A DNA stretch of 61,339 bases from an uncultured Chloroflexota bacterium (lineage in GTDB: Bacteria; Chloroflexota; Limnocylindria; Limnocylindrales; CSP1-4): assembly GCA_903925955.1 (NCBI GenBank), contig CAIYHO010000287.1, positions 1-61,339 on the forward strand. The letters run 5' to 3'. The notes below the pieces were generated by a model that worked only from the letters and a program-made list of their open reading frames with translations, did not search any database and had not been told where the DNA came from. Positions 14,190 through 38,851 of the stretch are shown here, in pieces. Position 1 is the stretch's first letter. The number at the start of each line of letters is the position of its first letter. The translations under genes were made by a program, and so were the position numbers.

Positions 14190-14819
14190 CTAGCGGTGGT
14201 GGATCCCCTCGAGTGCCCATTCCGGAAACGATACGCCTGCGTTTCCCAACTGGAGGCAGCGGAAGGTGGCCTCGGCCGCCTGCTCGAGGTTGAGCGCCCG
14301 TCGGTATGCCATCTCGACGGTGTCGCCCAGGGCCGAGCAGCCGTGATGGGCAAGGATGATGGCGTTGGCGTCCCGGGACGCCTCGGCTGCCGCCTCAGCA
14401 AGCTCGTCAGATCCGTTGTGGAAGAATGGGACGCGCTCGATCCTGCCCACGTAGAACGCGTGGTCGAGGGTTAGCAGCCGAACTGGATAGCCACAGGCGT
14501 CGAGGACGACCGCTACCTGTGGGTGCAGGTGGACGATCGCGTTGACGTCGGGGCGGACCTGATAGGTCCGCCAATGGAGTTTCCACTCACTCGATGGCCT
14601 TTTGTTGCCGCCTAAGACTGATCCCTGGAGATCGATGATCGAGAAGTCCTCGGGCACAAGCCGGTCCAACCAGGTGCCGGCGGCCGTGACCACAAAGGCA
14701 TCCTGGCCGGGGACCCGGGCGGACAGGTTGCCGCCGGACGCTACGACGAGCCCGCGTCCCACCGCATCCAGACCCGTCTTGGCCAGTTGTGCGATGAGCG
14801 CGGCGATGGGTTCAGCCAC
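14190..14819 (-). CDS. Class II aldolase/adducin-family protein (fuculose-1-P aldolase / ribulose-5-P 4-epimerase-like)
   Basis: 209 aa. Motifs: ASGGNLSARV, PSSEWKLHWRTY, AIVHLHP, HHGCSALG. Confidence 0.85.
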   Translation of the reverse strand: MAEPIAALIAQLAKTGLDAVGRGLVVASGGNLSARVPGQDAFVVTAAGTWLDRLVPEDFSIIDLQGSVLGGNKRPSSEWKLHWRTYQVRPDVNAIVHLHPQVAVVLDACGYPVRLLTLDHAFYVGRIERVPFFHNGSDELAEAAAEASRDANAIILAHHGCSALGDTVEMAYRRALNLEQAAEATFRCLQLGNAGVSFPEWALEGIHHR

Positions 14820-14911: not shown

Positions 14912-15868
14912 CTAGAAGATCGCGATCGGGTTCCAAGGCGAGCCCGTCGCGCCAGGAAGGCGGAGTGGCAAACCCACGACCATAAACTCGAAGCGTTGCT
15001 CTTCTTCGCAGGCGCGGGCCAGATCCTCCAATTGGAGGCTGTCCGAGGTGCACATGCCCATTGCGACGATCTGCAACGCGTGGATCGGATAGAGCATCCC
15101 CTCCACATTGCTAGGGACGGTCTCTCCGTCACCATCGGGCAGGAACGCGGCCACCCCGCGCTCATGCATCCAGGGAATGGTGTCGACGTGGAGGCCGGGC
15201 TTGCCCTCTCCGGGGGCGTAGCCGTTGTCCCACGCCCCGAGGGCCAGCCGCCGCGCATGGTGGCCGGTACGGAAGACGAAGATGTCTCCCTCACCAACGT
15301 GCACGCCCTGCGCCTGCTCCACCGCCTCCAGTTCTGCGCGCGTGACGGCCTCGCCCGGCTCCAGCCAAGGTACGCCGCGGAAGCGTGGAACGTCGAGCAG
15401 CACCCCACGGCCCACCACCCCGTTGGCGAGATTGGCGATGTCGAGCGAGGTACCGCCCTTGGACGTCATCACCACGTTGGCTTGCCGGCCGTTGTAGACC
15501 TGTCCTCGGTAGGCAATGTGGTTGAGGGCGTCGATGTGGGTGTGGCAGTCGCCGTGGAATGCCATCCCCAAATAGTCGAGCGCGAACGTCAGACCGCTCG
15601 ATCCGATGTCGATGTCATGCGCCTGAGTGACGAAGTGCTGCGCCGGGTTGGGATTATCTGGGCCCGCGACTTTGTTGATTGGGATCGACATCGACACGCG
15701 GCGCCCGGACCGTACCAACGCTGCAGCGTCGGTGACACGTGCGGGAGTGATCAAGTTCAGGGTACCGAGTTGGTCGTCCGGTCCCCACCGGCCCCAGTTC
15801 CTGACGGCCTCGAACACTTCGTTGAACTCGGCCAGGGAGACCCTGGCAGGCGGCGTCATCTGCGCCAT
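14912..15868 (-). CDS. Cyclase-family metal hydrolase (kynurenine-formamidase-like, PF04199-type)
   Basis: ORF 14912..16003 trimmed to ATG 15868 (GAGGAGG RBS upstream). Motifs: WGRWGPDDQLGTLN and HGDCHTHIDALNH (the HxGTHxDxPxH-like metal motif). Confidence 0.8.
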   Translation of the reverse strand: MAQMTPPARVSLAEFNEVFEAVRNWGRWGPDDQLGTLNLITPARVTDAAALVRSGRRVSMSIPINKVAGPDNPNPAQHFVTQAHDIDIGSSGLTFALDYLGMAFHGDCHTHIDALNHIAYRGQVYNGRQANVVMTSKGGTSLDIANLANGVVGRGVLLDVPRFRGVPWLEPGEAVTRAELEAVEQAQGVHVGEGDIFVFRTGHHARRLALGAWDNGYAPGEGKPGLHVDTIPWMHERGVAAFLPDGDGETVPSNVEGMLYPIHALQIVAMGMCTSDSLQLEDLARACEEEQRFEFMVVGLPLRLPGATGSPWNPIAIF

Positions 15869-17063: not shown

Positions 17064-18251
17064 TCATGGGGTGGCGCCCGTTGTGGACGCCGCGTCGATG
17101 ACGGCCCTGATCGCGCGTGCGCCGGCCACCGCACCCTGCGGATGGCCTTGAATGGCTCCCCCCACCCCGAGCATCACGTTGATCCCTGCGTGGGCGACAA
17201 GCGGCCCAATCATGTCGGCCGTCACACCACCAGCCAGCATCGGCATCGACGGGCGGAGCTCGCCGCGCTCCTCAAGCAGCCACGTGATGGTCTGCTCATA
17301 GGCCGCCCGACTGAGGGGCCGGCGACCGTGCGGGGTGCTGGTGAACACGGCATCGGCCCCGGCGAGCCGCAGCAGCTTGCCGAATAGAACAGCCTGCCCG
17401 ATGCCGGTGCCTGAGCCCCCCGTGAGTACCTCTGACGTGGTGGTATGGGCGAGGATCGGCACGCCAAGCCCAGACTCCGCGAGGTCCGCAAGGGCGTCGA
17501 GGCCAAGGGCCAGGGCATTGACCATGACCGCATCCGCGCCGGCGTCCACGGCCGAGTGCGCCGTGGCAACCACCCGCGTCGCCCGATCCGTGATGTTGGC
17601 CACATAGCGGGCACGGTGGCCCGTCTCCGCAGCCACGAGGTCAAGCCGCTGCCGATAGGCGCGGGCGCGATCCGCCACGCGGTTGAACGGCGTATCGGCG
17701 AGCAGTTCGTCGTCCTTGATGAGGTCCGCCCCGCCCCGGGCCACCTGCTCTGCAAGGTCAGCCCCTACCTTGGGCGAATACCCGGTGCACGGCTTGATCA
17801 TGTTCAGGAGCAGCGGCCGACCCCACGTGCCGGTCAAGTGCCGCCAGCCATCCGCGCCATACTGCGGCCCGGGAAACGCCGCCGCGAACCCGGGCGGGAG
17901 GTCCACGTCCACGAGCCTCGCGGTCAGCGACGTGGACGGGTCGTTGCCCACCAGAGTCGTGAGGAGCATCGGGAACTGCGCGCCAAAGTTGACCGTAGGG
18001 AAGCCCACACGCAGGACGCGGCGCGCGCCCACCGGCTCGCCGCCAACGTGGCCGTCAGCAGGTTCGTCTCGGATCTCGATCACGCGGGCACCGTGCAGAC
18101 GCTGCATGCGAGAGGTGATGCCAGGCACAGGCACCCAGGTGCCAATGCTCTGCCCGGTCGCGAACGCCTCCGCAACCGATCCCGCATCATCGGACGGCAA
18201 TTCGGCGAGGTACGTCGCCACGAGCTCCTCGCGCCGGGGAACCAAGGTCAT
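17064..18251 (-). CDS. RuBisCO-like protein (form IV RuBisCO large-subunit homolog)
   Basis: ORF 17064..18323 trimmed to ATG 18251 (MTLVPRREEL). GRPLLLNMIKPCTGYSPKVGADLAEQVARGGADLIKDDELLADTPF aligns with RuBisCO GRPLLGCTIKPKLGLS..LRGGLDFTKDDENVNSQPF. Later PMLAGGV and MLGVGGAIQGHP also align. Confidence 0.9.
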   Translation of the reverse strand: MTLVPRREELVATYLAELPSDDAGSVAEAFATGQSIGTWVPVPGITSRMQRLHGARVIEIRDEPADGHVGGEPVGARRVLRVGFPTVNFGAQFPMLLTTLVGNDPSTSLTARLVDVDLPPGFAAAFPGPQYGADGWRHLTGTWGRPLLLNMIKPCTGYSPKVGADLAEQVARGGADLIKDDELLADTPFNRVADRARAYRQRLDLVAAETGHRARYVANITDRATRVVATAHSAVDAGADAVMVNALALGLDALADLAESGLGVPILAHTTTSEVLTGGSGTGIGQAVLFGKLLRLAGADAVFTSTPHGRRPLSRAAYEQTITWLLEERGELRPSMPMLAGGVTADMIGPLVAHAGINVMLGVGGAIQGHPQGAVAGARAIRAVIDAASTTGATP

Positions 18252-18303: not shown

Positions 18304-19062
18304 CTAGTGCATGCCGCGTCCACCGGCGACGATCAGCAGCTCGCCGGTGATGAAGGCGGCGTCATCGGACGCCAGGAAGGCCGCGGACGCCGCAACGTCA
18401 CCGGGCGTGCCCCAGCGGGCGAGCGCGGTCTCCTCGAGGATCCGCTGGTGCACTTCAGGATCGATGTCCTCCATCATGTCCGTGCGGATCCAGCCGGGAC
18501 AGATGGCGTTGACCCGTACCTGCGGACCCAGGGCAAGCGCCATGGCCTTCGTCAGGCCGTTCATGCCTGCCTTGGACACCACGTACTCGGTGAAGCGCAT
18601 GGCCGACGGGTGGTACAAGCCGGAGTTGGACGAGATATTGATGATCGTCCCGCCGCCCTGCGCAACCATCACCGGCGCCACGGCCTTGGAGCACAGATAG
18701 GCGCCCTTGAGGTTCACGTCAATCGTGCGGTCCCAGTCGTCCTCGTCGGTCTCCATGAGGCTCTTGGTGATCATGATCCCCGCGTTGTTGACGAGGATGT
18801 CGATGCGCCCAAAGTGGTCCAGGGTGGACTGCACCATGGTGGCAACGTCGCTGCCCCGCGATACGTCAGCCTGCAGCGCCACGGCGCGCCCGCCTGCCAG
18901 CACAATCCCGGCCACGGCCGCGTCGGCCTCGGCTTCACGGGCAACGTAGTTCACGACGACCGCAGCGCCCTCGTCGGCCAGGCGACGTGCGACCGCCAGG
19001 CCGATCCCCCGCGAGGAGCCCGTGACGATGGCGACCCTACCGGACAGCCGTTGCTCACCCAT
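18304..19062 (-). CDS. SDR-family oxidoreductase (FabG-like)
   Basis: 252 aa. Motifs: VAIVTGSSRGIG, NNAG, YVVSKAG (YxxxK). Confidence 0.9.
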   Translation of the reverse strand: MGEQRLSGRVAIVTGSSRGIGLAVARRLADEGAAVVVNYVAREAEADAAVAGIVLAGGRAVALQADVSRGSDVATMVQSTLDHFGRIDILVNNAGIMITKSLMETDEDDWDRTIDVNLKGAYLCSKAVAPVMVAQGGGTIINISSNSGLYHPSAMRFTEYVVSKAGMNGLTKAMALALGPQVRVNAICPGWIRTDMMEDIDPEVHQRILEETALARWGTPGDVAASAAFLASDDAAFITGELLIVAGGRGMH

Positions 19063-19065
19063 GCC

Positions 19066-20052
19066 TCACGACCGCGCTGACGCTGTCGCGCCGACAGCGG
19101 TTCGGACGCCCGCCACGATGTCGTCCACCTGCGGCACCGAGGCCTTCTCGAGCGCTAGGTTGAAGGGGATCGTCGTGTTGTAGCCGGCCACGCGGATGAT
19201 GGGCGCCCGGAGGGCATCGAACGCGCGCTCGGCCACGATAGCGGCCACGTCGCTCGCCACGCCGCCGCGCTTGACAGCTTCCTGGGCTATCACCAGACGG
19301 CCGGTCTTGCGCACGGAGTCCAATATTGAGTCCACGTCCATGGGCACCAGCGTCCGGAGGTCGATGACCTCTACAGAGATCCCTTCGGCCGCAAGGATCT
19401 CGGCCGCCCGCAGACTCTTGAGGACCATATGCGACCACGCGACGAGGGTCACGTCGGACCCGCTGCGCTTGATGTCGGCGCGCCCCAGCGGGATCACGTA
19501 CTCGCCGTCTGGGACTTCTCCGTCCGTCATGTAGAGCAACTTGTGCTCGATGAAGATGACGGGGTCCTCGTCGCGGATTGCGGCCGTGAGCAGACCCTTT
19601 GCGTCGGCCGGGGTGGCCGGCATGACCACCTTCAGGCCGGGCACGTGGTAGTAGAGCGCCTCGAGGCTCTGCGAATGCTGCCCCGCAAGGGAGTTGCCCG
19701 TCCCGCCCTGCGTGCGGATGACCATGGGCACAGTGCCCTCACCGCCGGACATGAAGTGATACTTGGCGGCCTGGTTGATCACCTGGTCCATGGCCAGGAG
19801 CAGGAAGTCAACGAAGAGGATCTCCACCACCGGCCGCCGCCCCGCGATGGCCGCCCCCACGCCAAGCCCGACGAACCCGGCCTCGCTCAGCGGCGTGTCG
19901 ATGACGCGCCCGGCGCCATACTTGGTAATGAGCCCTTCGGTGACCTTATAGGACCCTCCGCGCTCGCCGATCCCCTCGCCAAGGCAGAACACGCGCTCGT
20001 CGCGTCCCATCTCCTCGTCGAGGGCCGCCCTGAGGGCTTCGCGGTACTTCAT
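19066..20052 (-). CDS. TPP-dependent 2-oxoacid/acetoin dehydrogenase E1 component, beta subunit
   Basis: 328 aa. MKYREALRAALDEEMGRDERVFCLGEGIGERGG..VIDTPLSEAGFVGLGVGAA is the canonical E1-beta (transketolase pyrimidine-binding plus C-terminal domains). Confidence 0.9.
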   Translation of the reverse strand: MKYREALRAALDEEMGRDERVFCLGEGIGERGGSYKVTEGLITKYGAGRVIDTPLSEAGFVGLGVGAAIAGRRPVVEILFVDFLLLAMDQVINQAAKYHFMSGGEGTVPMVIRTQGGTGNSLAGQHSQSLEALYYHVPGLKVVMPATPADAKGLLTAAIRDEDPVIFIEHKLLYMTDGEVPDGEYVIPLGRADIKRSGSDVTLVAWSHMVLKSLRAAEILAAEGISVEVIDLRTLVPMDVDSILDSVRKTGRLVIAQEAVKRGGVASDVAAIVAERAFDALRAPIIRVAGYNTTIPFNLALEKASVPQVDDIVAGVRTAVGATASARS

Positions 20053-20131: not shown

Positions 20132-21094
20132 CTACTGCGAAGAGACCTCGGCGAGGAACGCTTCTACCGATGGATTGGGGCTTGCGTTTGCCACGTCGAC
20201 CGCCTCGTCCATCACCTGCTCGACACGCTCGTCGACGGCGGCGATAGCTGCATCGCGCACGCCCGCCTCCGTCAATCGCGCGCGGAGCACGATGAGTGGG
20301 TCCCGTTCCTTCCACCGTCGGAGTTCGTCCTGCGGGAGGTAGAGGCCCGGATCGTTCACGTGGTGGCCGCCGTGGCGGAACGTCATGCACTCGATGAGCG
20401 ACGGCCCTTCGCCGGCCCGGGCCTTGCGGAGCGGTTCGGTCATCGCCTCCAAGACCACGACCGCGTCGTTGCCATCAACGGTCACCCCGGGCATCCCATA
20501 GGCAGCCGCGCGGTCCGACAGCCGGTCCACGCGCGCACTGTCACGGATGGGAGTGGAGACAGCGTACTGGTTGTTCTCCAAGACGAAGATGACCGGCAGG
20601 TCCCATATGGCCGAGAGGTTCATGGCCTCATGCCAGATGCCGTTGGCCGTAGACCCGTCGCTGCAGAACGCGACTACCACCTCGGTACCGCCCCGCTGCT
20701 TGATTGCCATCCCGGCGCCGGCCGCGATTGCCAGCCCGCCACCGACGATCCCGTTGGCCCCAAGGTTTCGGATCGACCGGCTTGCCACGTGCATGGAGCC
20801 GCCGCGGCCGCGGCAATACCCATCTTCCTTCCCGAACAGTTCGGCCATCATCCTGCGTGGGTCATGGCCCTTGGCGATGGCGTGCCCGTGGCCCCGATGT
20901 GTGCTGACGATGTAGTCGTCCGGCTCCAGAGCCGCGATCGCCCCCACTGCGATGGCCTCCTCCCCGAGGTAGGGGTGGAGATAGCCACGGATGTTCCCGA
21001 GGCGATACTGCTCGATGGCGCGCTGCTCAAACCGGCGGATGGTGGCCGCGGTCTCGTACATCGCCAAGAGCCCAAGCGCGTCGGTGACAGTCAT
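20132..21094 (-). CDS. TPP-dependent 2-oxoacid/acetoin dehydrogenase E1 component, alpha subunit
   Basis: 320 aa. Motifs: HPYLGEEAIAVG, STHRGHGHAIAKG, and the TPP motif GDGSTANGIWHEAMNLSAIWDLPVIFVLENNQYA. Confidence 0.9.
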   Translation of the reverse strand: MTVTDALGLLAMYETAATIRRFEQRAIEQYRLGNIRGYLHPYLGEEAIAVGAIAALEPDDYIVSTHRGHGHAIAKGHDPRRMMAELFGKEDGYCRGRGGSMHVASRSIRNLGANGIVGGGLAIAAGAGMAIKQRGGTEVVVAFCSDGSTANGIWHEAMNLSAIWDLPVIFVLENNQYAVSTPIRDSARVDRLSDRAAAYGMPGVTVDGNDAVVVLEAMTEPLRKARAGEGPSLIECMTFRHGGHHVNDPGLYLPQDELRRWKERDPLIVLRARLTEAGVRDAAIAAVDERVEQVMDEAVDVANASPNPSVEAFLAEVSSQ

Positions 21095-21129: not shown

Positions 21130-22080
21130 TCAGTACTCGGGGACGACGCGTCCGGCCATCACATCCATCTGGATCTGCTCAAGCTCTGCCCCGTCCAGGA
21201 ACGACATGATGGCCCCCAAAGAGGCGGCATCGGTCGATCGCCCAACGAGGGCCGCCCGCGTGTCCCGATCACCGACCTGGTCGCGGACGGTCTCTGAGAG
21301 CGGGCGGTCAAGCACGCCGTCCGGCCAGCGAACGCGCATCTCGTCGATGGTCCAGACCGCTGCGTCGCCGCGCCCGTCGGCGAGCAGCCGAGCAATCTGC
21401 ACACCCATCGCCGGGACGAGTTCCACCTCCTCGCCGGCAAACTCCAGCGCCGTCAGCAGCTGCTGATCGGCTGAGTGCCGGTCGATGATGACGCGCAGCG
21501 GTCCGCGGGCGTCCTCCGGCGACGTGTAGAAGACCCGGTGGCCCGTGTTGTAGGTCAGCGCCGGAAGCTCTGCCATCACCGAATCACCGCTGTCGCAGAG
21601 CTGCGATGCCGCGAAGCTCGACATCACCGCGAGATGGCAGCGGCCCTCGCGCACCGCCTGGAGGCGCTGGCGTGAACCGCGGACGAAGATGAGGAAGACA
21701 TCCGTCGTCACCACGCTAAGCAACTGCTTCAGGGATGTCGCCAGCGCCTCGTACCGGGGCGACGACGCAAGGGGCAGAGCGATCACGAGGGGCCGCCCGT
21801 TCTCGGCGATTGTCCACAGCCGCCCAACCGACCGTCCCACCATGAAGGCGCCTTGGCGACCGCGCATCTCAATGCCCACCGCCTCGGCCTCGATGAGCCG
21901 TGAAATCGCGGCGTGAACTGACGACGGACTTGACTGGTGCTGCTGGGCAAGCTCACGGACCGTCGGCAGGCGAGCTGGCGGGGCAGGACTGCCCAAGAAC
22001 CGGCGGGCAAGCACTGGCACGAGATCGGCCACGGCACGAGCGCGATTGCGTTCGCGGTTTTCAAACATGAAACGGATCAT
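21130..22080 (-). CDS. YhfZ-family putative transcriptional regulator (GntR-like wHTH plus YhfZ C-terminal domain)
   Basis: ORF 21130..22491 trimmed to ATG 22080 (MIRFMFENR). Segments LVIALPLASSPRYEALATSLKQ, VRGSRQRLQAVREGRCHLAVMSSFAAS and VIIDRHSADQQLLTALEFAGEEVELVP parallel E. coli YhfZ as I remember it. Confidence 0.8.
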   Translation of the reverse strand: MIRFMFENRERNRARAVADLVPVLARRFLGSPAPPARLPTVRELAQQHQSSPSSVHAAISRLIEAEAVGIEMRGRQGAFMVGRSVGRLWTIAENGRPLVIALPLASSPRYEALATSLKQLLSVVTTDVFLIFVRGSRQRLQAVREGRCHLAVMSSFAASQLCDSGDSVMAELPALTYNTGHRVFYTSPEDARGPLRVIIDRHSADQQLLTALEFAGEEVELVPAMGVQIARLLADGRGDAAVWTIDEMRVRWPDGVLDRPLSETVRDQVGDRDTRAALVGRSTDAASLGAIMSFLDGAELEQIQMDVMAGRVVPEY

Positions 22081-22541: not shown

Positions 22542-24002
22542 ATGACCGAGGCGACGGCCAAGCCCCCGGCCGCATTGCACTCAGACCTCGAACGCAACGC
22601 GATCGGGGCGCTCGGCGCCACGATGCAGGCAATCACGCACATCTCGCCGGCAATTGCTGCGTTCTTCTACACGCAGTTCGTGGTCTCGCTCGCCGGGATC
22701 ACGGCCCCCATTGCGTACCTGATTGGCTTCCTGCTGGTGCTGATGCTGGGCAACAGCCTCGTGCAGCTGTCGAAGCACCTGCCGTCCGCCGGCAGCTACT
22801 ACACGTACGTGAGCCGCGCGATCCATCCCCGGATCGGCTTCCTCACTTCATGGATGTACGTCCTGTACTCCCCGCTCTGCGGCGGCCCGATCTACGGGTT
22901 CTTCGGCTTCATCGCCGCGGGCGCCCTGAAGAGCTACTACAACATCGACGTGCCCTGGCTGTGGTGGGTGTGCATCGCGGTGGGCGCCCCGCTCGTCGCA
23001 TTCCTCCAGCACAAAGGGATCAAGATCTCCACCAAGGCCATGCTGGTCCTCGGCGCGTTCGAGATCGGCATCGTCTTCCTGCTTGCTCTCTCGGGGTTCC
23101 TCCATCCGGGCGCTGGCGGCATCTCGCTGGCCGTGTTCAACCCGGCCAACATGCTCAAGGACAGCGGCGGCGCACTCGCTATCTCCGGCTTCACGCTGGC
23201 GATCGTGTTCTCCGTCCAGGGCCTGACCGGCTGGGAGGCCGCGGCCCCGCTCGCCGAAGAAACTCAGAACCCGCGCCGGAACGTCCCGATCTCGGTGATC
23301 GCGTCGATCACCCTGATTGGCGCCTTCCTTGTGTTCGTGTTCTGGGGAATCATCACCTACTTCGGCGTGGACAGCATCGGCAACCTGATCAACTCCAAGG
23401 AACTGCCCGCCCTGGCAATGGCCCAGGACCTGTGGGGCGGGTTCTGGCTGCTGCTCCTGTTCGCGTTCCTCAACAGCGTGATCGCCGTCTGCCTTGCCAC
23501 CGCCAACGTCGGCACCCGCATGTGGTACGCGATGGCGCGCAGCGGATCCTTCCCCAAGGCACTCGCCAAGGTCGAGCCCAAGAGGAAGACTCCGACCAAC
23601 GCGATCCTGCTTCAGATGGTCCTCTCGCTCGTAGCGGGCATCGGCGTTGGGTTCTGGTTCGGCGCCGACGTGTCGTTCTTCCTGATCGACGGCCTGATCC
23701 TCGTGATCGGCGTGACCGTCGTCTACCTGTTCGCGAACCTCTCCGTGTTCATGTTCTACCGAGGCGAGAAGAAGGCGGAGTTCAACGTGCTGCTGCACGT
23801 GGTGTTCCCGCTCCTCTCGTCGTTGGTGCTCATCTACGCGGTTGTCCAGTCGTTCAACCCCGCACCAGCGGAGCCGTACAGCTGGGCGCCAGTCATCGAC
23901 GGTGTCTGGTTCCTGGCCGGCGTGGTCATCCTGGTCTGGATGCGCGCTCGCGGTCGCGAGGACTGGCTCCTCAACGCCGGTGAGGCCATCGCCGAGGCCT
24001 AA
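22542..24002 (+). CDS. APC-superfamily amino acid/polyamine permease
   Basis: 486 aa, 12 TM. GAAGGAG RBS 8 nt upstream of the ATG. Typical APC N-terminal region (LERNAIGALGATMQAITHISPA..). Confidence 0.9.
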   Translation: MTEATAKPPAALHSDLERNAIGALGATMQAITHISPAIAAFFYTQFVVSLAGITAPIAYLIGFLLVLMLGNSLVQLSKHLPSAGSYYTYVSRAIHPRIGFLTSWMYVLYSPLCGGPIYGFFGFIAAGALKSYYNIDVPWLWWVCIAVGAPLVAFLQHKGIKISTKAMLVLGAFEIGIVFLLALSGFLHPGAGGISLAVFNPANMLKDSGGALAISGFTLAIVFSVQGLTGWEAAAPLAEETQNPRRNVPISVIASITLIGAFLVFVFWGIITYFGVDSIGNLINSKELPALAMAQDLWGGFWLLLLFAFLNSVIAVCLATANVGTRMWYAMARSGSFPKALAKVEPKRKTPTNAILLQMVLSLVAGIGVGFWFGADVSFFLIDGLILVIGVTVVYLFANLSVFMFYRGEKKAEFNVLLHVVFPLLSSLVLIYAVVQSFNPAPAEPYSWAPVIDGVWFLAGVVILVWMRARGREDWLLNAGEAIAEA

Positions 24003-24062: not shown

Positions 24063-24166
24063 AACTCTGGGCCCGGGGCACCCAACGTCGCGCTCCGCAC
24101 GAGCCGTCGGTGCCAGACCCACCCACCACCGGGCACGAAACAGTGGCATCAAGGAGTTTGAGTAGG

Positions 24167-24934
24167 ATGGAAAAGCGGTTCGTCGGCAAGGTTGCGCTGG
24201 TGACCGGCGCGACAAGCGGCATCGGACAAGCAACGGCTGTCCGGCTGGCGGCCGAAGGTGCGGTCGTTGCGGTGAACGCGCGACCAACCGGTGACGCCAC
24301 CGAGACGCTCGGCAAGATCAAGGAGGTAGGCGGCGAGGGCTTCGCGGTTGTCGCCGACATGCGCGACCCCGCTCAAGTCGTGGCAATGGTCCAGGAGACG
24401 GCGCAGCGGGGCGGCCGCCTCGACTACCTCGTGTCCAACGCCGCCATCAACCCGTTCAGGCCCTGGGACACAACGACCGTCGAGGATTGGAACGACCTCT
24501 CCGAGACAAACCTACGAGGCACGTGGGTGGTGACAACCGAGGCCGCCAAACAGATGATCAAGGAGGGGCACGGAGGGGCGATCTGCTGCACGAGCTCCAT
24601 CTCGGCGCACGTTGGCTCCCCGTTCCAGACGGCGTATTGCGCCACCAAAGCCGGCATCTCGATGTGGGTCAAGGCGTTCGGCTCCGTGGTGGGCACGCAC
24701 GGGATCCGCGTCAACGCGGTTGAGCCCGGCTGGATCCTCACCAAGATGGCCGCACCGATGTTTGACGACCCCGCCGCGGTGAAGTACTACGAAGAGCGAA
24801 TCGCGCTGCATCGGCCGGGCGAGCCCACCGAACTGGCCGGGGCCATCGCGTTCCTGCTGTCTGACGATGCCAGCTACGTGACCTCCGCCACCCTGCTGGT
24901 GGACGGCGGGTTCATCGTCAACGCCGAGCTGTAG
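24167..24934 (+). CDS. SDR-family oxidoreductase
   Basis: ORF 24110..24934 trimmed to ATG 24167 (AAGGAG RBS at 24151). Motifs: VALVTGATSGIG, NAAI, YCATKAG (YxxxK). Confidence 0.9.
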   Translation: MEKRFVGKVALVTGATSGIGQATAVRLAAEGAVVAVNARPTGDATETLGKIKEVGGEGFAVVADMRDPAQVVAMVQETAQRGGRLDYLVSNAAINPFRPWDTTTVEDWNDLSETNLRGTWVVTTEAAKQMIKEGHGGAICCTSSISAHVGSPFQTAYCATKAGISMWVKAFGSVVGTHGIRVNAVEPGWILTKMAAPMFDDPAAVKYYEERIALHRPGEPTELAGAIAFLLSDDASYVTSATLLVDGGFIVNAEL

Positions 24935-24963: not shown

Positions 24964-25227
24964 GTGGCCGTGCGCGTGGTGATGCCCCAAGCGGGCCAGG
25001 ACCTGGAGACAGGGACGGTCCGGCAGTGGCTCAAGGCCGAGGGTGACGCCGTGATCAAGGGCGAGCCGCTGGTCCAGATCGACACCGAGAAGATCTCTGT
25101 TGAGGTGGAAGCACCGGCGTCCGGGACCCTGCTCCGGATCCTGGTCCCAAACGAGACGGACACCGCAATCCTCTCGACGATCGCCATCATCGGCAACCCC
25201 GGTGAGGACATCTCCGGCATCGAATGA
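24964..25227 (+). CDS. Stand-alone biotinyl/lipoyl-attachment domain protein (87 aa)
   Basis: MAVRVVMPQAGQDLETGTVRQWLKAEGDAVIKGEPLVQIDTEKISVEVEAPASGTLLRI is an E2-type lipoyl domain with a candidate acceptor Lys in DTEK. No E2 catalytic domain follows. Confidence 0.8.
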   Translation: MAVRVVMPQAGQDLETGTVRQWLKAEGDAVIKGEPLVQIDTEKISVEVEAPASGTLLRILVPNETDTAILSTIAIIGNPGEDISGIE

Positions 25228-25290: not shown

Positions 25291-26757
25291 ATGAGCCTCA
25301 TCGGTATCGATCTCGGGACCAGCGCGATCAAGGTGGTCGCGTACTCGACCGACGGTACTGTGCTGGCGCAATCCAGCAGTACCGTGCCCGCGTACCGTCC
25401 ACAGCCTGGCCATTGGGAAGTTGACGTCAGCGAGTCTCGGGCGGCCTTCGATGCCGCCCTCTCGGCCGTTGCCGGCGACCCGGCCGTCCGGCAGGACCCA
25501 CCCGTTGCCTTGTCCTTCAGTTCATCTGGCCGCGAGGTCTTCCCGGTGGCGGAGGACGGCACTCCGCTGGGGCGCTGCCTGATGACGCCGGATGTCCGAG
25601 GCGACGACGTGGCCGCCGAGACCGCGGCTCGCCGATCACCCGAGGACTGGTTTCGCCTGACTGGTCACGTGCCACGGCGGATGGACCCAGTCAACCGGGC
25701 CCTCTGGTGGCGCAAGAGCCATCCCGAGGTGGCCGCGAAGGCGCGGTGGTTCATGAACTGGCACGAGTACTACGCTCTGCTGCTCAGCGGACGCCCGGTG
25801 GTGGACTGGAGCGACGCTGGGACTTGGGCAACCTATGACGTGGCCACGGCGGGCTGGTCCGCTGAACGCATTGCCGAGACCGGGATCGACCCGCGCTGGT
25901 TGCCGGAGATCCGACCCAACGGTGACCCGATAGGCCAGATCCTGCCGGAGGCGGCCCGGCGCTATGGCCTGCCCGCTGACATGTTGGTAGTGACCGGCGC
26001 ATACGATGCCTATGCCGCATCGGTTGGCGCTGGCGCGGTGGACTCGGGGTTTGTCGCGCTCGCCTGCGGGACCTGGAACAGCTTCAATACGCCGGTCCTG
26101 CCCGGCTGGCCCGAGGGGCTGGTCAATGACGGGATGAATGTGTTCCCGCACCCAGGTCCCACGGGCTTCGGAATCCTGGTCACGAACCCCAACGGGATGA
26201 GCGTGGTGGATTGGGCTCGCGGCCTTCTGCACCTGTCAATTGAGGACCTGGAGACGGGCCTCGCCGCAGCCGGCCCTGGTCCGGGCTACGTGTTCGCCGA
26301 TGCGGCATTCACGCCCCTACCTCACGTCGTCGCGGACGAGGGCTTCGGCTGCACCTTCTCGGGAGTGACGCTCGCGTCCACCGGCGTCGACATCGTTCGA
26401 TCGCTGCTCGAGGCTATTGCCTGCGAGTTCTCGCTGAGCCTAGACACGCTGCGATCACACGGAGTCGAACCCGTTTTGGTACGGGCGACCGGCGGTGGCT
26501 CGCGGAATGGCTGGTGGCTCCAGTTGATCGCAGACGTGTCTGGCGTCCCCGTTGAAGTGGTGGCGCAGGAACAGCCGGGGGCGTTCGGCGCTGCGATCCT
26601 CGCTGGCGTCGGAGCAGGCGTCTACCCGTCGGTCTCCGAGGCGATCGGGCGCCTTGTGCGGGTTGCGCGCCGGTTCGAGCCAGAGGCAGCGCGGGGACGC
26701 CGCTACGACGGTGTCCGCAGTCGCCTGGCCGAGCGCGGCGGGAGTGGGCGGCCATGA
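25291..26757 (+). CDS. FGGY-family carbohydrate kinase (xylulokinase-like)
   Basis: ORF 25231..26757 trimmed to ATG 25291 (MSLIGIDLGTSAIKVVAYSTDG..). C-terminal GGGSRNGWWLQLIADVSG and GAAILAGVGAG motifs. Confidence 0.85.
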   Translation: MSLIGIDLGTSAIKVVAYSTDGTVLAQSSSTVPAYRPQPGHWEVDVSESRAAFDAALSAVAGDPAVRQDPPVALSFSSSGREVFPVAEDGTPLGRCLMTPDVRGDDVAAETAARRSPEDWFRLTGHVPRRMDPVNRALWWRKSHPEVAAKARWFMNWHEYYALLLSGRPVVDWSDAGTWATYDVATAGWSAERIAETGIDPRWLPEIRPNGDPIGQILPEAARRYGLPADMLVVTGAYDAYAASVGAGAVDSGFVALACGTWNSFNTPVLPGWPEGLVNDGMNVFPHPGPTGFGILVTNPNGMSVVDWARGLLHLSIEDLETGLAAAGPGPGYVFADAAFTPLPHVVADEGFGCTFSGVTLASTGVDIVRSLLEAIACEFSLSLDTLRSHGVEPVLVRATGGGSRNGWWLQLIADVSGVPVEVVAQEQPGAFGAAILAGVGAGVYPSVSEAIGRLVRVARRFEPEAARGRRYDGVRSRLAERGGSGRP

Positions 26758-27839
26758 CCTCCACCACACCGCTGTCGGCGATGTCCGCCTCGATGGCGCT
26801 CTCCACGCCTGCCCTCGTCGTTGACCTTGACGTACTCGACGCGAACGTCGCCGCAATGGCAAGACTCCTCATCGGGACGGGCAAGACCATCCGTCCACAC
26901 ATCAAGACCCACCGGACCCCGGAACTGGCCCGCCGCCAGCTCGGCGGGGCTGCGGTGGGGCTCACGTGCGCCACCGTGGGCGAGGCGGAGGCCATGGTTC
27001 ACGCCGGCTTCACGGACGTGCTCATCGCCAACGAGGTGGTGGACCCGGCCAAGATCGCTCGCCTCGCAGCCCTGGCTCATCGCGCTGATGTCACGGTCGC
27101 CGTTGACGACCCAGAGCCGATCGGCGCCCTGTCGCGGGCGGCAATTGGCGCCGGCGTCACGGTAGGCGTACTCATCGACGTGGACATCCTGTTGCACCGG
27201 TGCGGCGTGGGATCCGCTACCGACGCCGTGGGCCTGGCGCAGGTCATCAGCCGCTCCCCAGGGCTGCACTTGCAGGGGATCATGGGCTATGAGGGGCGCG
27301 TCCGGCTGACCGAGCCACACCGCGACCAGCAGATCTCGGGTGCGTACGCGGCCCTCAGTGCGGCCGCGGCGGCCATCCGCGATGCGGGCTTCAGCGTGGA
27401 GACCGTGTCCGCCGCCGGCACGTCAACCATCGCGGAGGCACTCGCACACCCTGAGATCACGGAGATCCAGGCCGGGGTGTACGCGCTGATGGAGCCGGAG
27501 TTGCTGATCATGGACCTGCCGTTCCGGTGCGCGGTCACGTTGCGCGGCACCGTCATCAGCCGTCACCCCGGGCGGATCGTGCTGGACACCGGCCGCCGCG
27601 TCGTTGGGATGGAGTACGGCCCACCGACCCCCGTTGGGTTTGCCGTCCACGGGATCGCGATGGGCGACGAGCACGCAACGCTCACGATGGATGACCCATT
27701 GCCGGCTCTGGGCAGCCAACTGGACCTGACACCCGGCCAGGTCCGCACAACCTTCAACCTCCACGACCATGTCTGGGTCAGCCGCGGGGGCCACATCGTT
27801 GATTGCTGGCCGATCACCGCACGCGGCAGCTCGCAGTAG
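26754..27839 (+). CDS. DSD1-family fold-type III PLP enzyme (D-serine dehydratase / D-threonine aldolase-like), paralog 1
   Basis: 361 aa. The start overlaps the kinase stop (ATGA). STPALVVDLDVLDANVAAMA..IRPHIKTHRTPELARRQL (PLP lysine in HxKTH), then GYEGR and a C-terminal DEHA motif. Confidence 0.8.
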   Translation: MTSTTPLSAMSASMALSTPALVVDLDVLDANVAAMARLLIGTGKTIRPHIKTHRTPELARRQLGGAAVGLTCATVGEAEAMVHAGFTDVLIANEVVDPAKIARLAALAHRADVTVAVDDPEPIGALSRAAIGAGVTVGVLIDVDILLHRCGVGSATDAVGLAQVISRSPGLHLQGIMGYEGRVRLTEPHRDQQISGAYAALSAAAAAIRDAGFSVETVSAAGTSTIAEALAHPEITEIQAGVYALMEPELLIMDLPFRCAVTLRGTVISRHPGRIVLDTGRRVVGMEYGPPTPVGFAVHGIAMGDEHATLTMDDPLPALGSQLDLTPGQVRTTFNLHDHVWVSRGGHIVDCWPITARGSSQ

Positions 27840-27866: not shown

Positions 27867-29030
27867 ATGCTGGACCCCAAGCCGCTCATAACTGCGGCCC
27901 ACGATCGGGTGCTGGAGCTGTATCGACCGGATCTTGGGCGCCTGCGCGAGGAGCTCGCCACGCCCACCCTGCTCCTCGACTTGGCCGTGTTGCGCGCCAA
28001 TCTCGCGTTCATGGGCGACAACATGCGCGACGTGCCCACAGCCTTGCGCGCGCACGTCAAGGTCCACAAGAGCCCCCATATCGCGCGCCTCCAGATGGAG
28101 TACGGCGCGACCGGCGTAGGCTGTGCGACGGTATGGGAGGCCATCGTGATGGCCCGCGCCGGGATCGACGACGTGTTCGTCATCAACGAGGTCGTTGGTG
28201 CGGAGCGGGTCCGAGCGCTCGCACTTCTGGCTCGTGAGGCAAGCGTCAAGACAGCCGTGGACGACGTCGCGCAGGTGGACGCCCTGTCGCGGGCCGCCGT
28301 CGCCGCGGGCAGCACCATCGGGATCCTCGTGGACGTTGACGAGGGTATGCACCGGTGCGGCGTCGCATCGCCGGATGAGGCGCTCATCGTTGCCCGGCGC
28401 GCGGCCGACGCCCCTGGCCTGCAGTTCCTGGGGCTCACGGGGTACGAGGGGCACTGCTCGCTGGAGTTTGACGCGACCAAGCGGACCGCCATGGCGCGCG
28501 AGGCGATGGCCTACTTCACGGGAGTCGCCGAGCACTTGGCGGCCAACGGGCTCCCAAGCGAGATCGTGACCGCCGCCGGGACAGGGACCTGGGAGGTCAC
28601 CTCGCGCTACCCCGGGATCACCGAGATCCAGCCTGGGTCGTACGCGACGATGGACGGTCACCACCGAGGCCTAGACGCCCGCTTCGGCTGGGCGGTCACG
28701 GTGCTGGCCACGGTGATCAGCCGTCGGTCTGACCGCGTCGTCCTCGACGCTGGCAGCAAGACGGTTGGCGCGTCCCACGGCGTCCTCGCCGCTCCGCCCC
28801 TCGCGACATACCGCTTCGACGAGGAGCACTCGACCTTCCTCGCGGACAGCTCCTGCGCCCTACGAGTGGGCGACACGGTGGAGATCCGCTGCAACTACAC
28901 CCCCTTCGCGATCAGCTACTTCGAGGCGTACCACGTCATCGAAGGCGGGCGTGTGGTGGACATCTGGCCGGTCCTACCGCGCGGGCCGGAGTCGCGGTGG
29001 CTGCTCGACATGCTGGAGCGGGGCGAGTGA
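27867..29030 (+). CDS. DSD1-family fold-type III PLP enzyme, paralog 2
   Basis: 387 aa. Motifs: TPTLLLDLAVLRANLAFM, RAHVKVHKSPHIARLQMEYGATG, GYEGHCS, FDEEHSTF. Confidence 0.8.
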   Translation: MLDPKPLITAAHDRVLELYRPDLGRLREELATPTLLLDLAVLRANLAFMGDNMRDVPTALRAHVKVHKSPHIARLQMEYGATGVGCATVWEAIVMARAGIDDVFVINEVVGAERVRALALLAREASVKTAVDDVAQVDALSRAAVAAGSTIGILVDVDEGMHRCGVASPDEALIVARRAADAPGLQFLGLTGYEGHCSLEFDATKRTAMAREAMAYFTGVAEHLAANGLPSEIVTAAGTGTWEVTSRYPGITEIQPGSYATMDGHHRGLDARFGWAVTVLATVISRRSDRVVLDAGSKTVGASHGVLAAPPLATYRFDEEHSTFLADSSCALRVGDTVEIRCNYTPFAISYFEAYHVIEGGRVVDIWPVLPRGPESRWLLDMLERGE

Positions 29031-29070: not shown

Positions 29071-30258
29071 ATGCGAGATCCGGCGCCGCTCATAGTCGAG
29101 GCGCACAACCGCGCGCGCGACCTGTACGGGTCCGCCATCGGGCGGAGCCGGTTCGACGTCTGCACCCCTGCCCTGGTGGTGGACCTCGGGGTACTGCGCG
29201 GCAACCTCGCGTACATGCAGAGCCGTCTGCCAGCGCTGCACGCGCGCCTGCGCGGCCACGTGAAGAACCACAAGAGCCCGCATATCGCCAGGATGCAGCT
29301 GGAGTACGGCGCGTTTGGCCTGTGCGCGGCGACCGTGTGGGAGGCCATCGTCATGGTCCGCGCGGGCGCTGACGACGTGCTGATCGCCAACCAGCTCGTT
29401 GATCCGGTCAAGCGACGGGCGGCCGCGCTGCTCGCCCGCGAGGCCAACGTCCTCGTAAACGTCGACGACGTGGGCGACGCCCAGGCGCTGTCGGCAGCAG
29501 CCGTCGCCGCAGGCTCCACTATCGGCGTGCTGCTCGAGGTGGACACCGGCATGCACCGCTCGGGCGTGGACAGCGCCGAGGAGGCGGTCAGGGTCGTCAG
29601 CGGGATTGTAAACCTGCCGGGAATACGGTTCGACGGCCTGTCCGGCTACGAGGGCCACTGCTCAATGGAGATGGACCACGAGGCCCGGCACGCCAAGCAA
29701 CAGGCGGCAATCGCCTACTTCGTGGAGGTCGCGGATCAGTTGGCCGAGGCCGGTCTGCCGTGCAGGATCCTGTCAGCGGCCGGCACCGCCACCGCGTTCT
29801 GGACGGGCTCCAACCCGCGCATTACCGAGCTCCAACTGGGCTCGTACGCGGCCATGGACGACTACCACTACCTCATGGAGCCGCGCTTCCGGAAGGCGAC
29901 CTCCGCCGTGGTCACCGTCATCAGCCGGCGCGAGGATCGGCTGGTGCTCAATCTTGGCAAAAAGACATTCGGGTCGGCCGACGTGGGCGGGATACCCGCA
30001 TACCCGCGGATCATGGGTTTCGAGGACCTGCCGCCCTATCGCTTCGACGAGGAGCACGCGACGTATGTCGTGGACGATTCGTGTCCCCTCAAGGTGGGCG
30101 ACGTCGTGGACTTCCACCTGGGCTATACGCCATTCGCAGTCAACTACTTCGACGCGTACCACGTTGTCGAAGACGGCAAGGTGGTGGACATCTGGCCGAT
30201 CATGCCCCGCGGTCCCCTCCACGGTGGACTCTTGGGCGAACTCGAACCACGGATCTGA
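29071..30258 (+). CDS. DSD1-family fold-type III PLP enzyme, paralog 3
   Basis: ORF 28765..30258 trimmed to ATG 29071 (GAAGGAG RBS). Motifs: TPALVVDLGVLRGNLAYM, RGHVKNHKSPHIARMQLEYGAFG, GYEGHCS, FDEEHATY. By eye closest to paralog 2. Confidence 0.8.
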   Translation: MRDPAPLIVEAHNRARDLYGSAIGRSRFDVCTPALVVDLGVLRGNLAYMQSRLPALHARLRGHVKNHKSPHIARMQLEYGAFGLCAATVWEAIVMVRAGADDVLIANQLVDPVKRRAAALLAREANVLVNVDDVGDAQALSAAAVAAGSTIGVLLEVDTGMHRSGVDSAEEAVRVVSGIVNLPGIRFDGLSGYEGHCSMEMDHEARHAKQQAAIAYFVEVADQLAEAGLPCRILSAAGTATAFWTGSNPRITELQLGSYAAMDDYHYLMEPRFRKATSAVVTVISRREDRLVLNLGKKTFGSADVGGIPAYPRIMGFEDLPPYRFDEEHATYVVDDSCPLKVGDVVDFHLGYTPFAVNYFDAYHVVEDGKVVDIWPIMPRGPLHGGLLGELEPRI

Positions 30259-31742: not shown

Positions 31743-31768
31743 GGTGGGTCCTCCAGTATGGGCGGCCG

Positions 31769-33393: not shown

Positions 33394-33397
33394 CGGA

Positions 33398-34396: not shown

Positions 34397-34485
34397 GGTC
34401 GCTGGCCCCTAGTGGAGTGAGCAATTGCGCAGACATGGGCAACTGATCGGCACCAGTGTACCCCGGGTGCCTGCCGGGACCATGC

Positions 34486-35214: not shown

Positions 35215-35226
35215 GATGCCCTCCGG

Positions 35227-36126: not shown

Positions 36127-36194
36127 CGGAGGAGTCCCTTCGTGGGGTTCGGGGCGTCGGCGACCCCGTGGGCAGGTGACAGATGTGGCGTAGG

Positions 36195-38803: not shown

Positions 38804-38851
38804 CGACCGACCTTCAGGCAATCTGGCGAGCCGGGCGAGCCGGCGATTGGA

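Follow-up and report, generated by a model that had tools for sequence, protein, structure and literature searches.

The question raised by this locus is what reaction is catalysed by a RuBisCO-like protein (RLP) encoded in a gene cluster that differs from those of the known RLP pathways. In the window, by which we mean the whole 61,339-nucleotide stretch of DNA that was analysed, the RLP gene runs on the minus strand from an ATG at 18251 to a stop at 17064 (395 aa); the original prediction gave it no strand. An alternative longer GTG start at 18323 would run into the upstream SDR gene, and the lengths of homologues and of database gene calls fall between 391 and 398 aa. The protein matched Pfam RuBisCO_large (PF00016) with an E value of 1.6e-34 as well as RuBisCO_large_N (PF02788), and a search of PDB sequences matched MtnW 2zvi at E 6e-62. 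A Foldseek comparison using the AlphaFold model (pLDDT 89.3, pTM 0.90) gave a TM score of 0.88 to MtnW 2zvi, and scores to RLP and RuBisCO structures ranged from 0.82 to 0.88. The window RLP is a member of the RuBisCO large-subunit superfamily, with an N-terminal alpha/beta domain and a C-terminal TIM barrel.

Active-site residues were mapped by MAFFT alignment and numbered according to spinach RbcL, the sequence of which is identical to 8RUC. The catalytic residues K175, K201, D203, E204 and H294 are kept as K153, K179, D181, E182 and H269, and N123 (N103), T65/W66 (T38/W39) and the phosphate-binding glycines G380/G381 (G341/G342) and G403/G404 (G364/G365) are also retained. Replacements were found at E60 (G33), K177 (C155), R295 (T270), H298 (S273), H327 (F303), K334 (R310), L335 (R311) and S379 (A340). 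The original prediction had claimed that the K201/D203/E204 triad, K175, a His near position 294 and the AGG and GVGG phosphate-binding glycine motifs were kept, that K177 was changed to Cys, that R295 was gone and that the GKLEG loop bearing K334 was replaced by TPHGRRP. All of these residue calls were reproduced in the MAFFT alignment, which pairs TPHGRRP with VVGKLEG and in which the quoted string pairs IKPCTG/IKPKLG, GGADLIKDDE/GGLDFTKDDE and PILAHTTTSE/LLHIHRAMHA match. Among 120 relatives picked by homology, K153, K179, D181, E182 and H269 are present in every sequence, N103 in 119 and C155 in 118, and R311 of loop 6 is invariant; positions 295, 327, 334, 335 and 379 vary from one sub-clade to another, so that function may not carry over between sub-clades. 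A Cys at position 177 was considered as a trait unique to this family and rejected, as KPC motifs are common to many RLP clades.

Judged from the alignment, the window RLP retains a carbamylatable Lys, the Asp/Glu metal ligands and the proximal (P1) phosphate site (T65/W66, G380/G381, G403/G404), and no longer has the distal phosphate site (R295, H298, H327), K177, E60 or the loop-6 Lys. The residues K175, K201, D203 and E204 expected of a form IV RLP are kept with the carboxylation-specific residues absent, and the full catalytic set of bona fide RuBisCO (forms I-III) is broken by E60G, K177C, R295T, H298S, H327F, K334R and S379A. On sequence grounds this is a genuine form IV RLP that does not fix CO2, and the original assignment to form IV is supported by the residue map, by the failed MtnW and OiaX thresholds, by the tree and by the neighbourhood. 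RuBP carboxylation, which the original prediction had also discounted, is not expected of a protein with no distal phosphate site, K177, K334 or E60; a true carboxylase was rejected on account of the replaced residues, and a type III RuBisCO model scored the protein at 188 bits against a cut-off of 497. The intact triad and N123 would suit an oxygenase or other C-C-cleaving RLP (cf. the D-hamamelose pathway), or even a genuine carboxylase. However, the replacement of K177, R295, H327, K334 and E60 together makes RuBP carboxylation very unlikely, and the distal phosphate site is missing, though the substrate of the hamamelose RLP is a bisphosphate. Oxygenation is among the known RLP chemistries (PMC10176493), and even so we regard this group of reactions as highly improbable here.

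MtnW, the DK-MTP-1-P enolase of methionine salvage, gave the top sequence and structure matches, and JGI automatic annotation assigns this name to relatives of the window RLP. That the window RLP is itself this enolase is nevertheless extremely unlikely. Identity to MtnW is just 34%, and scores against the MtnW equivalog models were 261 bits against a cut-off of 409 (NF007095) and 233 bits against 514 (TIGR03332). The position of Lys98 in the Geobacillus kaustophilus enzyme, a residue whose catalytic role was reportedly described by Imker et al. in 2007, is N103 in the window RLP and Asn in all but one of the 120 relatives, and this retained N123 sets the window RLP apart from MtnW. In a tree built by neighbour joining (NJ) only, with the reference clades other than YkrW named from their signatures, the window RLP fell outside the YkrW clade (76% bootstrap); the Chloroflexota core was supported at 99% and the whole G/N/K/C clade at 50%. 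No methionine-salvage (mtn) genes came to light in the window or the related loci, and the MtnW assignment was rejected on the curated score cut-offs, the absent Lys98 equivalent, the tree position and the gene context. In the PDB search 3qfw, presumably a DeepYkr-type structure, scored 105 bits compared with 213 for MtnW, and the Photo-type RLPs 1ykw and 2qyg scored 150 and 142 bits, also below MtnW. The window RLP was far in the NJ tree from a group of ~375-aa proteins with the signature 'ENK-KDHH', which is presumably DeepYkr. In the phylogenetic placement that the original prediction had proposed, together with the neighbourhood comparison, no tight cluster was found with a characterised isofunctional clade sharing this neighbourhood.

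The genes around the RLP include all of the neighbours originally named (DUF4432, cyclase-family hydrolase, SDR, E1 alpha/beta and FGGY kinase). A gene for a small lipoyl protein, at 24964-25227, had gone unmentioned. The features are as follows.

14190..14819, minus strand: class II aldolase family protein, fuculose-1-phosphate-aldolase-like, under every equivalog cut-off
14912..15868, minus strand: cyclase-family (PF04199) metal hydrolase, 318 aa
15897..17006, minus strand: DUF4432 protein, mutarotase-like (PDB 3ty1, 'hypothetical aldose 1-epimerase')
17064..18251, minus strand: form IV RLP, 395 aa, with predicted carbamyl-Lys K179, metal ligands D181/E182, and K153, C155, N103 and H269
18304..19062, minus strand: SDR oxidoreductase (SDR1), between E1beta and RLP
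19066..20052, minus strand: TPP-dependent dehydrogenase E1 beta subunit (PDH/acetoin type), scoring 407 bits against a subfamily cut-off of 321
20132..21094, minus strand: TPP-dependent dehydrogenase E1 alpha subunit
21130..22080, minus strand: YhfZ-type GntR-like regulator, first gene of the operon (ORF reaches 22491; homologues 294-318 aa)
22542..24002, plus strand: APC-family amino-acid permease, divergently transcribed
24110..24934, plus strand: second SDR, nearest model L-rhamnose 1-dehydrogenase, under cut-off
24964..25227, plus strand: free-standing lipoyl-carrier protein, 87 aa
25231..26757, plus strand: FGGY sugar kinase (FGGY1), xylulokinase-like, under cut-off
26754..27839, plus strand: D-threonine-aldolase/D-serine-dehydratase-like PLP enzyme 1
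27867..29030, plus strand: D-threonine-aldolase-like PLP enzyme 2 (PDB D-threonine aldolases 7dib/4v15, E about 1e-49)
29071..30258, plus strand: D-threonine-aldolase-like PLP enzyme 3, AAGGAG upstream of ATG
30720..43092, minus strand: sugar-phosphate module, probably linked, on the same strand after the RLP in relative L005

The module at the end of this list encodes an aldo-keto reductase, a HAD protein, a class II FBP aldolase, a SorC regulator, an RPE-like protein, LsrF and LsrK equivalogs, a 2-hydroxyacid dehydrogenase, a glyoxalase-fold protein, RpiB, TIM and a Dak1/Dak2 kinase.

The cluster is kept in 10 more independent loci (L002, L005, L006, L012, L085, L086 and L088-L091), the RLPs of which are 62-72% identical. 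The gene order shared by these close Chloroflexota relatives is YhfZ-E1a-E1b-RLP-(E2 core)-cyclase-DUF4432, in which the E2 core is usual and not universal, with a divergent arm of APC permease-lipoyl-FGGY-3x D-Thr-aldolase-like. The start of the RLP gene overlaps the stop of E1b in L002, L086, L089 and L090, and the start of the E2 core overlaps the RLP stop in L086, L089 and L090. The window has no E2 core of the kind found in most close relatives; the position of SDR1 is vacant in most relatives, where an E2 catalytic-domain gene comes after the RLP, and the class II aldolase family gene of the window is absent from most of the close relatives. The 87-aa lipoyl protein has a counterpart of 75-88% identity in the cluster of every close relative, and in L086 glycine-cleavage genes adjoin the cluster. 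The view that this neighbourhood is unlike those of the characterised RLP functions was borne out across close relatives, and no precedent for an RLP within a dehydrogenase-complex operon was found among the RLP contexts considered or in the literature searches.

Beyond Chloroflexota, the signature G60, N123, K175, C177, K201, D203, E204 and H294 defines a clade. The G60/N123/C177 clade occurs in at least 528 species genomes, among them those of cultured gut Clostridia/Firmicutes and Actinomycetota, and is a widespread RLP clade without an assigned function in the literature searched. The searches also gave no function for RLP combinations with E1, FGGY, YhfZ or DUF4432; an RLP adjoining a c4013-type epimerase domain has been noted, with epimerase activity guessed (PMC7325909). 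Contexts in the wider clade are heterogeneous, comprising glycerol-kinase/GlpD clusters, PTS polyol clusters and UPF0261 plus metallo-lactamase clusters. In 52 of 84 clade loci a TIM or RpiB gene maps no more than 10 kb from the RLP, and FGGY kinase is one of the most frequent neighbours; this association suggests neutral ketose phosphates as substrates. An Actinomycetota locus, L025, resembles the erythritol locus in combining the RLP with an ABC transporter, a GlpD-like protein, DeoR, TIM, RpiB and FGGY, and no EryC-type gene was found when one was looked for in it. The RLP as a general EryC analogue fits such Actinomycetota loci, but loci L029 and L044 contain glycerol-kinase paralogues and the window cluster is not ery-like, and this candidate was set aside.

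Every characterised RLP reaction starts with the enolisation of a RuBP-related substrate (review PMC10176493). From the residues and gene context we infer that the window RLP would enolise a phosphorylated keto sugar, and we put the probability that it is a non-carboxylating, enolising RLP in a new pathway at about three in four. Mg2+ would be bound on carbamylated K179, and the substrate would be a monophosphorylated alpha-hydroxy-ketone or ketose phosphate produced by the adjacent FGGY kinase. Re-protonation of the enediolate would give an epimer or a carbonyl-shifted isomer through proton transfer of the 1,1-, 1,2- or 1,3-type; such an isomerase or epimerase outcome is plausible at somewhat less than even odds, and any one particular substrate is quite unlikely to be the right one. 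The next stop for the product would be the module of the same operon, with its TPP-dependent E1alpha/E1beta, lipoyl protein and E2; isomerases of the TIM/RpiB type and ketose-1-phosphate aldolases may also receive it. Overall, the genes look like a pathway that breaks down a hydroxylated (D-)amino acid or amino-sugar acid. The APC permease would import this compound, the three D-threonine-aldolase-like enzymes would split it into glycine and a sugar aldehyde, and the YhfZ-type regulator would control the pathway. Taken as a whole, the best explanation is a clade RLP that enolises a monophosphorylated ketose and feeds its product to the TPP/lipoyl module, a reading that we consider evenly poised.

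Decarboxylation is already known as RLP chemistry (PMC10176493), and the window RLP could, like the apionate-pathway RLPs, be a decarboxylase (or transcarboxylase/hydrolase) of beta-keto-acid phosphates, with a 3-oxo acid-sugar phosphate formed from the imported amino acid or aldonate as its substrate. The neighbours lend this some weight, as they include SDRs resembling aldose 1-dehydrogenases, the mutarotase-like DUF4432, a metal hydrolase that is a possible lactonase, and a class II aldolase family member weakly similar to 3-oxo-tetronate-4-P decarboxylase (92 bits); the invariant R311 of loop 6 could moreover hold a carboxylate group, and a keto-acid substrate would then be favoured. On the other hand, the OiaX NCBIfam equivalog gave 144 bits against a cut-off of 700, a score that excludes OiaX-type membership, the kinase is FGGY and not the DUF1537 type of the known acid-sugar pathways, and the clade-wide association with TIM, RpiB and FGGY points to neutral substrates, so that we consider decarboxylation unlikely. 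The RLP might also stand in for LsrG, with phospho-DPD (phosphorylated autoinducer-2) or a related 1-deoxy-diulose phosphate as the compound isomerised and LsrF thiolase and/or the E1 module receiving the product. LsrK and LsrF equivalogs are present in the window (628 bits against a cut-off of 528, and 472 against 297) and no ABM-type LsrG was found there, the order RLP-TIM-...-LsrK-LsrF-RPE is co-directional in L005, and MtnW likewise uses a 2,3-diketone phosphate. This reading is downgraded, however: of about 11 close loci only 3 have LsrK and LsrF alongside the RLP, and the conserved glyoxalase-fold protein that goes with them could replace LsrG just as well. At its core the RLP is partnered by E1ab, the lipoyl protein, FGGY1 and the PLP enzymes, and we regard the LsrG role as improbable.

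Enolisation of a monophosphorylated ketose can be extended to a joint reading, possible although doubtful, in which the RLP belongs integrally to a TPP/lipoyl dehydrogenase operon (E1alpha-E1beta-RLP-E2core), is translationally coupled within it, and represents a new RLP reaction, an unrecognised pathway and a new isomerase/epimerase class. A kinase-made ketose-1-phosphate, for example, would be converted to an acyloin phosphate that E1 would cleave oxidatively to acyl-CoA and a triose or tetrose phosphate. By this route soil Chloroflexota would turn D-beta-hydroxy-amino acids or amino-sugar acids into glycine and a sugar, and some G60/N123/C177 members elsewhere would replace EryC in tetritol catabolism. 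If so, this clade would be a new functional class of RLP isomerases/epimerases. The reaction is known for only a handful of RLPs (enolase, 1,3-isomerase, decarboxylase or transcarboxylase, oxygenase), and each newly solved one exposed a new pathway and informed the evolution of RuBisCO chemistry. An unassigned clade in a conserved cluster unlike known RLP pathways is a good lead to a new reaction, and the cluster offers a concrete set of partner enzymes for substrate finding. Some pipelines wrongly label the G60/N123/C177 clade as the methionine-salvage enolase, so that its correction would fix a widespread mis-annotation. This is not a new kind of enzyme or system, since the fold, the catalytic core and the logic of kinase, RLP and cleavage are familiar.

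Among known systems, MtnW/YkrW of Bacillus and Geobacillus (2zvi, 2oek) is the closest protein. It shares with the window RLP the carbamyl-Lys/Asp/Glu triad, K175, H294 and a single proximal phosphate site, and both have lost R295, H298, H327 and K334; it differs in having a Lys (K98) as catalytic base where the window RLP has Asn and Val/Met where the window RLP has Cys at position 177, and the window RLP falls under the curated cut-offs, in its own clade and outside a methionine-salvage context. The apionate-pathway RLPs (OiaX/OiaC decarboxylase, transcarboxylase/hydrolase) are likewise catabolic, downstream of a kinase and active on a phosphorylated oxo compound, but have another kinase family and other neighbours, in addition to the OiaX score given above. 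Acetoin and pyruvate dehydrogenase operons are similar in that E1alpha, E1beta and a lipoyl domain all come from the RLP operon, as does an E2 core in most relatives; here, however, E2 is divided between the 87-aa lipoyl protein and a separate core 222-246 aa long, the RLP gene lies between E1beta and the E2 core in relatives, and the window version lacks the core. The likeness to EryC, the L-3-tetrulose-4-phosphate racemase that acts with EryH/TpiA2 and EryI/RpiB in the Brucella erythritol pathway, is one of function by analogy only, based on the many clade RLPs that adjoin TIM and RpiB paralogues, FGGY kinase and a GlpD-like dehydrogenase, and on L025 with its lack of an EryC-type gene. EryC has an unrelated fold and the window cluster consists of E1ab, lipoyl protein and PLP enzymes, and the analogy is retained solely as possible support for isomerase/epimerase chemistry in the clade. 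The mechanistic model that we favour for the window RLP is the 'DeepYkr' RLP of R. rubrum (5-methylthio-D-ribulose-1-phosphate 1,3-isomerase); although more distant in sequence than MtnW and unlike the window RLP in signature and context, it acts on a monophosphorylated ketose-1-phosphate to give a 1-substituted xylulose-5-phosphate, a product of the acyloin type that a TPP-dependent E1 could cleave.

The gene that the original prediction had placed at 17064-18251 was borne out as a genuine open reading frame on the minus strand, running from an ATG at 18251 to a stop at 17064 and encoding a RuBisCO-like protein (RLP) of 395 aa. An alternative GTG start at 18323 would add 24 residues and run into the stop codon (18304-18306) of the SDR gene upstream; because both homologues and the gene calls in databases span 391-398 aa, the ATG was taken as the start. 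The product matched the Pfam families RuBisCO_large (E 1.6e-34) and RuBisCO_large_N, and its best PDB sequence matches were the MtnW (DK-MTP-1-P) enolases 2zvi (E 6e-62) and 2oek (E 1.5e-60). An AlphaFold model, built with 41 relatives as input, had a mean pLDDT of 89.3 and a pTM of 0.90, and superposed with a TM-score of 0.88 on 2zvi and of 0.83-0.88 on RLP and form III structures. The protein nonetheless fell below every NCBI curated equivalog cut-off, scoring 261 and 233 bits against the MtnW models (cut-offs 409 and 514), 188 bits against the type III RuBisCO model (cut-off 497) and 144 bits against that for OiaX, the 3-oxo-isoapionate-4-phosphate decarboxylase (cut-off 700).

Alignment with spinach RbcL (identical to 8RUC), two MtnW sequences and approximately 120 relatives reproduced all of the residue assignments originally made by eye. 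Residues kept, in spinach numbering with the window RLP position in brackets, were K175 (K153), K201, D203 and E204 (K179, D181, E182), H294 (H269), G380/G381 (G341/G342), G403/G404 (G364/G365), T65/W66 (T38/W39) and N123 (N103), while those replaced were K177 (C155), R295 (T270), H298 (S273), H327 (F303), K334 (R310), E60 (G33) and S379 (A340). In RuBisCO structures this pattern corresponds to a retained metal/carbamate centre and proximal (C1) phosphate cup, without the distal phosphate site or the residues stabilising the carboxylation step. The alignment shows a predicted active site in which the carbamate/Mg site is intact, one phosphate site, the proximal one, remains and the carboxylation residues are lost. 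The position of N103 is occupied in G. kaustophilus MtnW by Lys98, which we take to be the catalytic base of the enolase. Among 120 relatives chosen by homology, K153, K179, D181, E182 and H269 were invariant, C155 (118/120), N103 (119/120) and R311 (119/120) nearly so, and Q368 was conserved in 119/119. Cys at 177 was rejected as a mark unique to the family, since many RLP groups have 'KPC' motifs.

A search among 1.8 billion cluster representatives returned 186 matches at E <= 1e-30. A neighbour-joining tree computed from 127 full-length sequences grouped the window RLP with sequences that all carry G, N, K and C at 60, 123, 175 and 177, separately from the G-K-K-(V/M) YkrW group in which both MtnW references fell. 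The Chloroflexota core had a bootstrap value of 99%, the pairing of the window RLP with a 69%-identical relative 97%, YkrW 76% and the entire G/N/K/C group 50%. The group neighbouring it in the tree (loci L068, L070, L074, L078, L083 and L084; representatives P0131, P0127, P0132 and others) carries E60, N123, C177 and K334, residues that place its active site nearer to true RuBisCO, and some of its genes adjoin UPF0261, PEP_hydrolase-like and ComB-like genes. A motif-seeded scan, run on a single genome for each species, located relatives of the window RLP in at least 528 genomes, at 53-72% identity in Chloroflexota/Limnocylindrales and 40-47% in cultured Bacillota and Actinomycetota, the cultured carriers including Enterocloster lavalensis, Clostridium lamae, Muricomes intestini, Lactonifactor longoviformis, Agrococcus jejuensis and Cnuibacter. 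NCBI gives these relatives only a domain name, and the JGI pipeline calls many or most of them 'DK-MTP-1-P enolase', which is probably a systematic mis-annotation, because the catalytic Lys and a methionine-salvage context are both absent. With its scores below the cut-offs, Asn at the Lys98 position and a place outside the YkrW group, we consider an MtnW function for the window RLP refuted.

The RLP gene lies in one of two divergent operons.

Genes of the RLP operon and the divergent operon (window coordinates, strand)
21130-22080 (region to 22491), minus: YhfZ-type regulator, RLP operon
20132-21094, minus: E1alpha, RLP operon
19066-20052, minus: E1beta, RLP operon
18304-19062, minus: SDR, RLP operon
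17064-18251, minus: RLP, RLP operon
15897-17006, minus: DUF4432 protein, RLP operon
14912-15868, minus: cyclase-family hydrolase, RLP operon
14190-14819, minus: class II aldolase, fuculose-phosphate-aldolase-like, RLP operon
22542-24002, plus: APC amino-acid permease, divergent operon
24110-24934, plus: SDR, divergent operon
24964-25227, plus: free-standing lipoyl protein (87 aa), divergent operon
25231-26757, plus: FGGY kinase, divergent operon
26754-27839, 27867-29030 and 29071-30258, plus: three tandem D-threonine-aldolase/D-serine-dehydratase-like PLP enzymes, divergent operon

Ten more independent loci, with RLPs 62-72% identical to that of the window, shared this architecture wherever the locus reached far enough. 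In the commonest form the divergent arm runs from the permease through an SDR (not always present), the lipoyl protein and the FGGY kinase to three D-threonine-aldolase-like genes, and the RLP arm from YhfZ through E1alpha, E1beta, RLP and an E2 catalytic core (222-246 aa) to, further on, the cyclase and DUF4432. In the relatives' loci L002, L086, L089 and L090 the E1beta stop and the RLP start overlap, and in the last three of these there is a further overlap, of 4-8 nt, between the RLP stop and the E2-core start; the RLP is therefore embedded in a dehydrogenase-complex operon. The E2 of this complex is split into the free lipoyl protein on the divergent strand and the separate core 3' of the RLP (L002, L086, L089-L091). 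The window is a variant, with an SDR between E1beta and RLP and an extra class II aldolase, and no E2 core was detected across its 61 kb, though the lipoyl protein is present. The D-threonine-aldolase-like trio is kept in relatives, with a fourth copy in L090, and in L086 the gene call fuses one copy to the FGGY kinase. In L086 glycine-cleavage T, H and P genes also adjoin the RLP cluster, which fits aldolase-type glycine release by the PLP enzymes. The YhfZ-type regulator (21130-22491, minus) is paired with Ala_racemase_N-fold PLP enzymes, as in the uncharacterised E. coli yhfX-yhfZ cluster; this suggests a recurring regulator-enzyme partnership for some amino compound.

A second module occupies 30720-43092 on the minus strand and encodes an aldo-keto reductase, a HAD hydrolase, a class II FBP aldolase, a SorC regulator, an RPE-like protein, a 2-hydroxyacid dehydrogenase, a glyoxalase-fold protein, RpiB, TIM and a Dak1/Dak2 kinase. 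LsrK (autoinducer-2 kinase; 628 bits, cut-off 528) and LsrF (P-HPD thiolase; 472 bits, cut-off 297) both exceed the NCBI equivalog cut-offs in this apparently Chloroflexota genome and are located at 34486-37820 (minus) with the RPE/LsrE-like gene and the SorC regulator. No ABM-type LsrG accompanies this set in the window, and its place may be taken by the conserved glyoxalase-fold gene (38852-39349). The Dak1/Dak2 kinase, TIM paralogue and RpiB, in series at 39999-43092 (minus), look like a tetrulose/erythrulose phosphate module, the RpiB reaching 156 bits with the D-erythrulose-4-phosphate isomerase model, whose cut-off is 240. Because two relatives' loci join RLP with module genes, the RLP cluster and this module are probably a single catabolic island: L005 has TIM, dehydrogenase, LsrK, LsrF and RPE genes 3' of RLP on the same strand, and L085 has TIM directly 3' of RLP, with DUF4432 and cyclase behind LsrF-like and RPE-like genes. 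LsrK and LsrF, however, are found with the RLP at no more than 3 of the close loci. Elsewhere in the window, 44236-48258 (minus) and 50921-56329 encode HypD and HypF (hydrogenase maturation), a DUF1638 protein, an MTHFR-like protein with a DUF5981 C-terminal domain and a RACo-type corrinoid activase, a set that hints at corrinoid-dependent methyl transfer or C1 metabolism.

Going beyond the fold, the sites, the lost residues and the conserved operon partnership, we infer a reaction and a pathway for the RLP. Judging by the permease and the three D-threonine-aldolase-like enzymes, the nutrient may be a hydroxylated D-amino acid or an amino-sugar acid. These enzymes would split it into glycine and a sugar aldehyde, to be processed by the DUF4432 mutarotase-like protein, SDRs and cyclase-family hydrolase. 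The FGGY kinase would yield a monophosphorylated ketose or acyloin phosphate, which the RLP would enolise and re-protonate to an epimer or carbonyl-shifted isomer. The closest known mechanistic precedent is the R. rubrum RLP, which converts a ketose-1-phosphate to a 1-substituted xylulose-5-phosphate, a DXP-like acyloin. The product would pass to the TPP-dependent E1 and lipoyl/E2 module for oxidative cleavage of the acyloin or 2-oxo type, yielding an acyl-CoA, with TIM/RpiB isomerases and ketose-1-phosphate aldolases as possible further recipients.

Three other reactions compete with this enolisation and re-protonation. The RLP could decarboxylate a beta-keto-acid phosphate, as apionate RLPs do, in which case the invariant R311 (119/120) could bind the carboxylate. 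It could substitute for LsrG, the phospho-DPD isomerase, but LsrK and LsrF accompany RLP in 3 close loci only. An oxygenase is the third rival; enolase, isomerase, decarboxylase and oxygenase are the only RLP functions listed in a 2023 review (PMC10176493). No function for this clade or its gene combinations was found by full-text literature searches, key older RLP papers lying outside their coverage, and the clade may already bear a name. One genome paper describes an RLP beside a c4013-type (DUF4432-like) epimerase domain and a DeoR regulator, and guessed at an epimerase (PMC7325909). We regard the subfamily as solid, widespread and mis-annotated, with an unusual conserved operon, and as a good target for function discovery, though no surprise in kind.

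Across the wider clade, TIM or RpiB lay within 8-10 kb of RLP in 52 of 84 loci, and FGGY kinases, class II aldolases, UPF0261, GlpD-like dehydrogenases and PTS/ABC sugar transporters were also frequent at this distance. Active-site positions 295, 327, 334, 335 and 379 vary among sub-clades, which probably differ in substrate and have their core chemistry in common. The gut Clostridia Enterocloster lavalensis (L042) and Clostridium lamae (L037) show the order PTS-EIIC(GAT)-RpiB-TIM-RLP, in which the PTS is of galactitol type (EIIA/EIIB/EIIC-GAT); both are cultured hosts in which the function of the clade could be probed. Locus L025, from an uncultured Actinomycetota MAG (1682-13286), reads ABC transporter-GlpD-like-DeoR-TIM-RLP-RpiB-FGGY and also has a DUF2291 lipoprotein; L029 and L044 have glycerol-kinase paralogues instead. 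No EryC-type (AP_endonuc_2-type) gene was found at L025. The gene set of this locus mirrors that of the Brucella erythritol locus, with the RLP at the site expected for EryC, the L-3-tetrulose-4-phosphate racemase.
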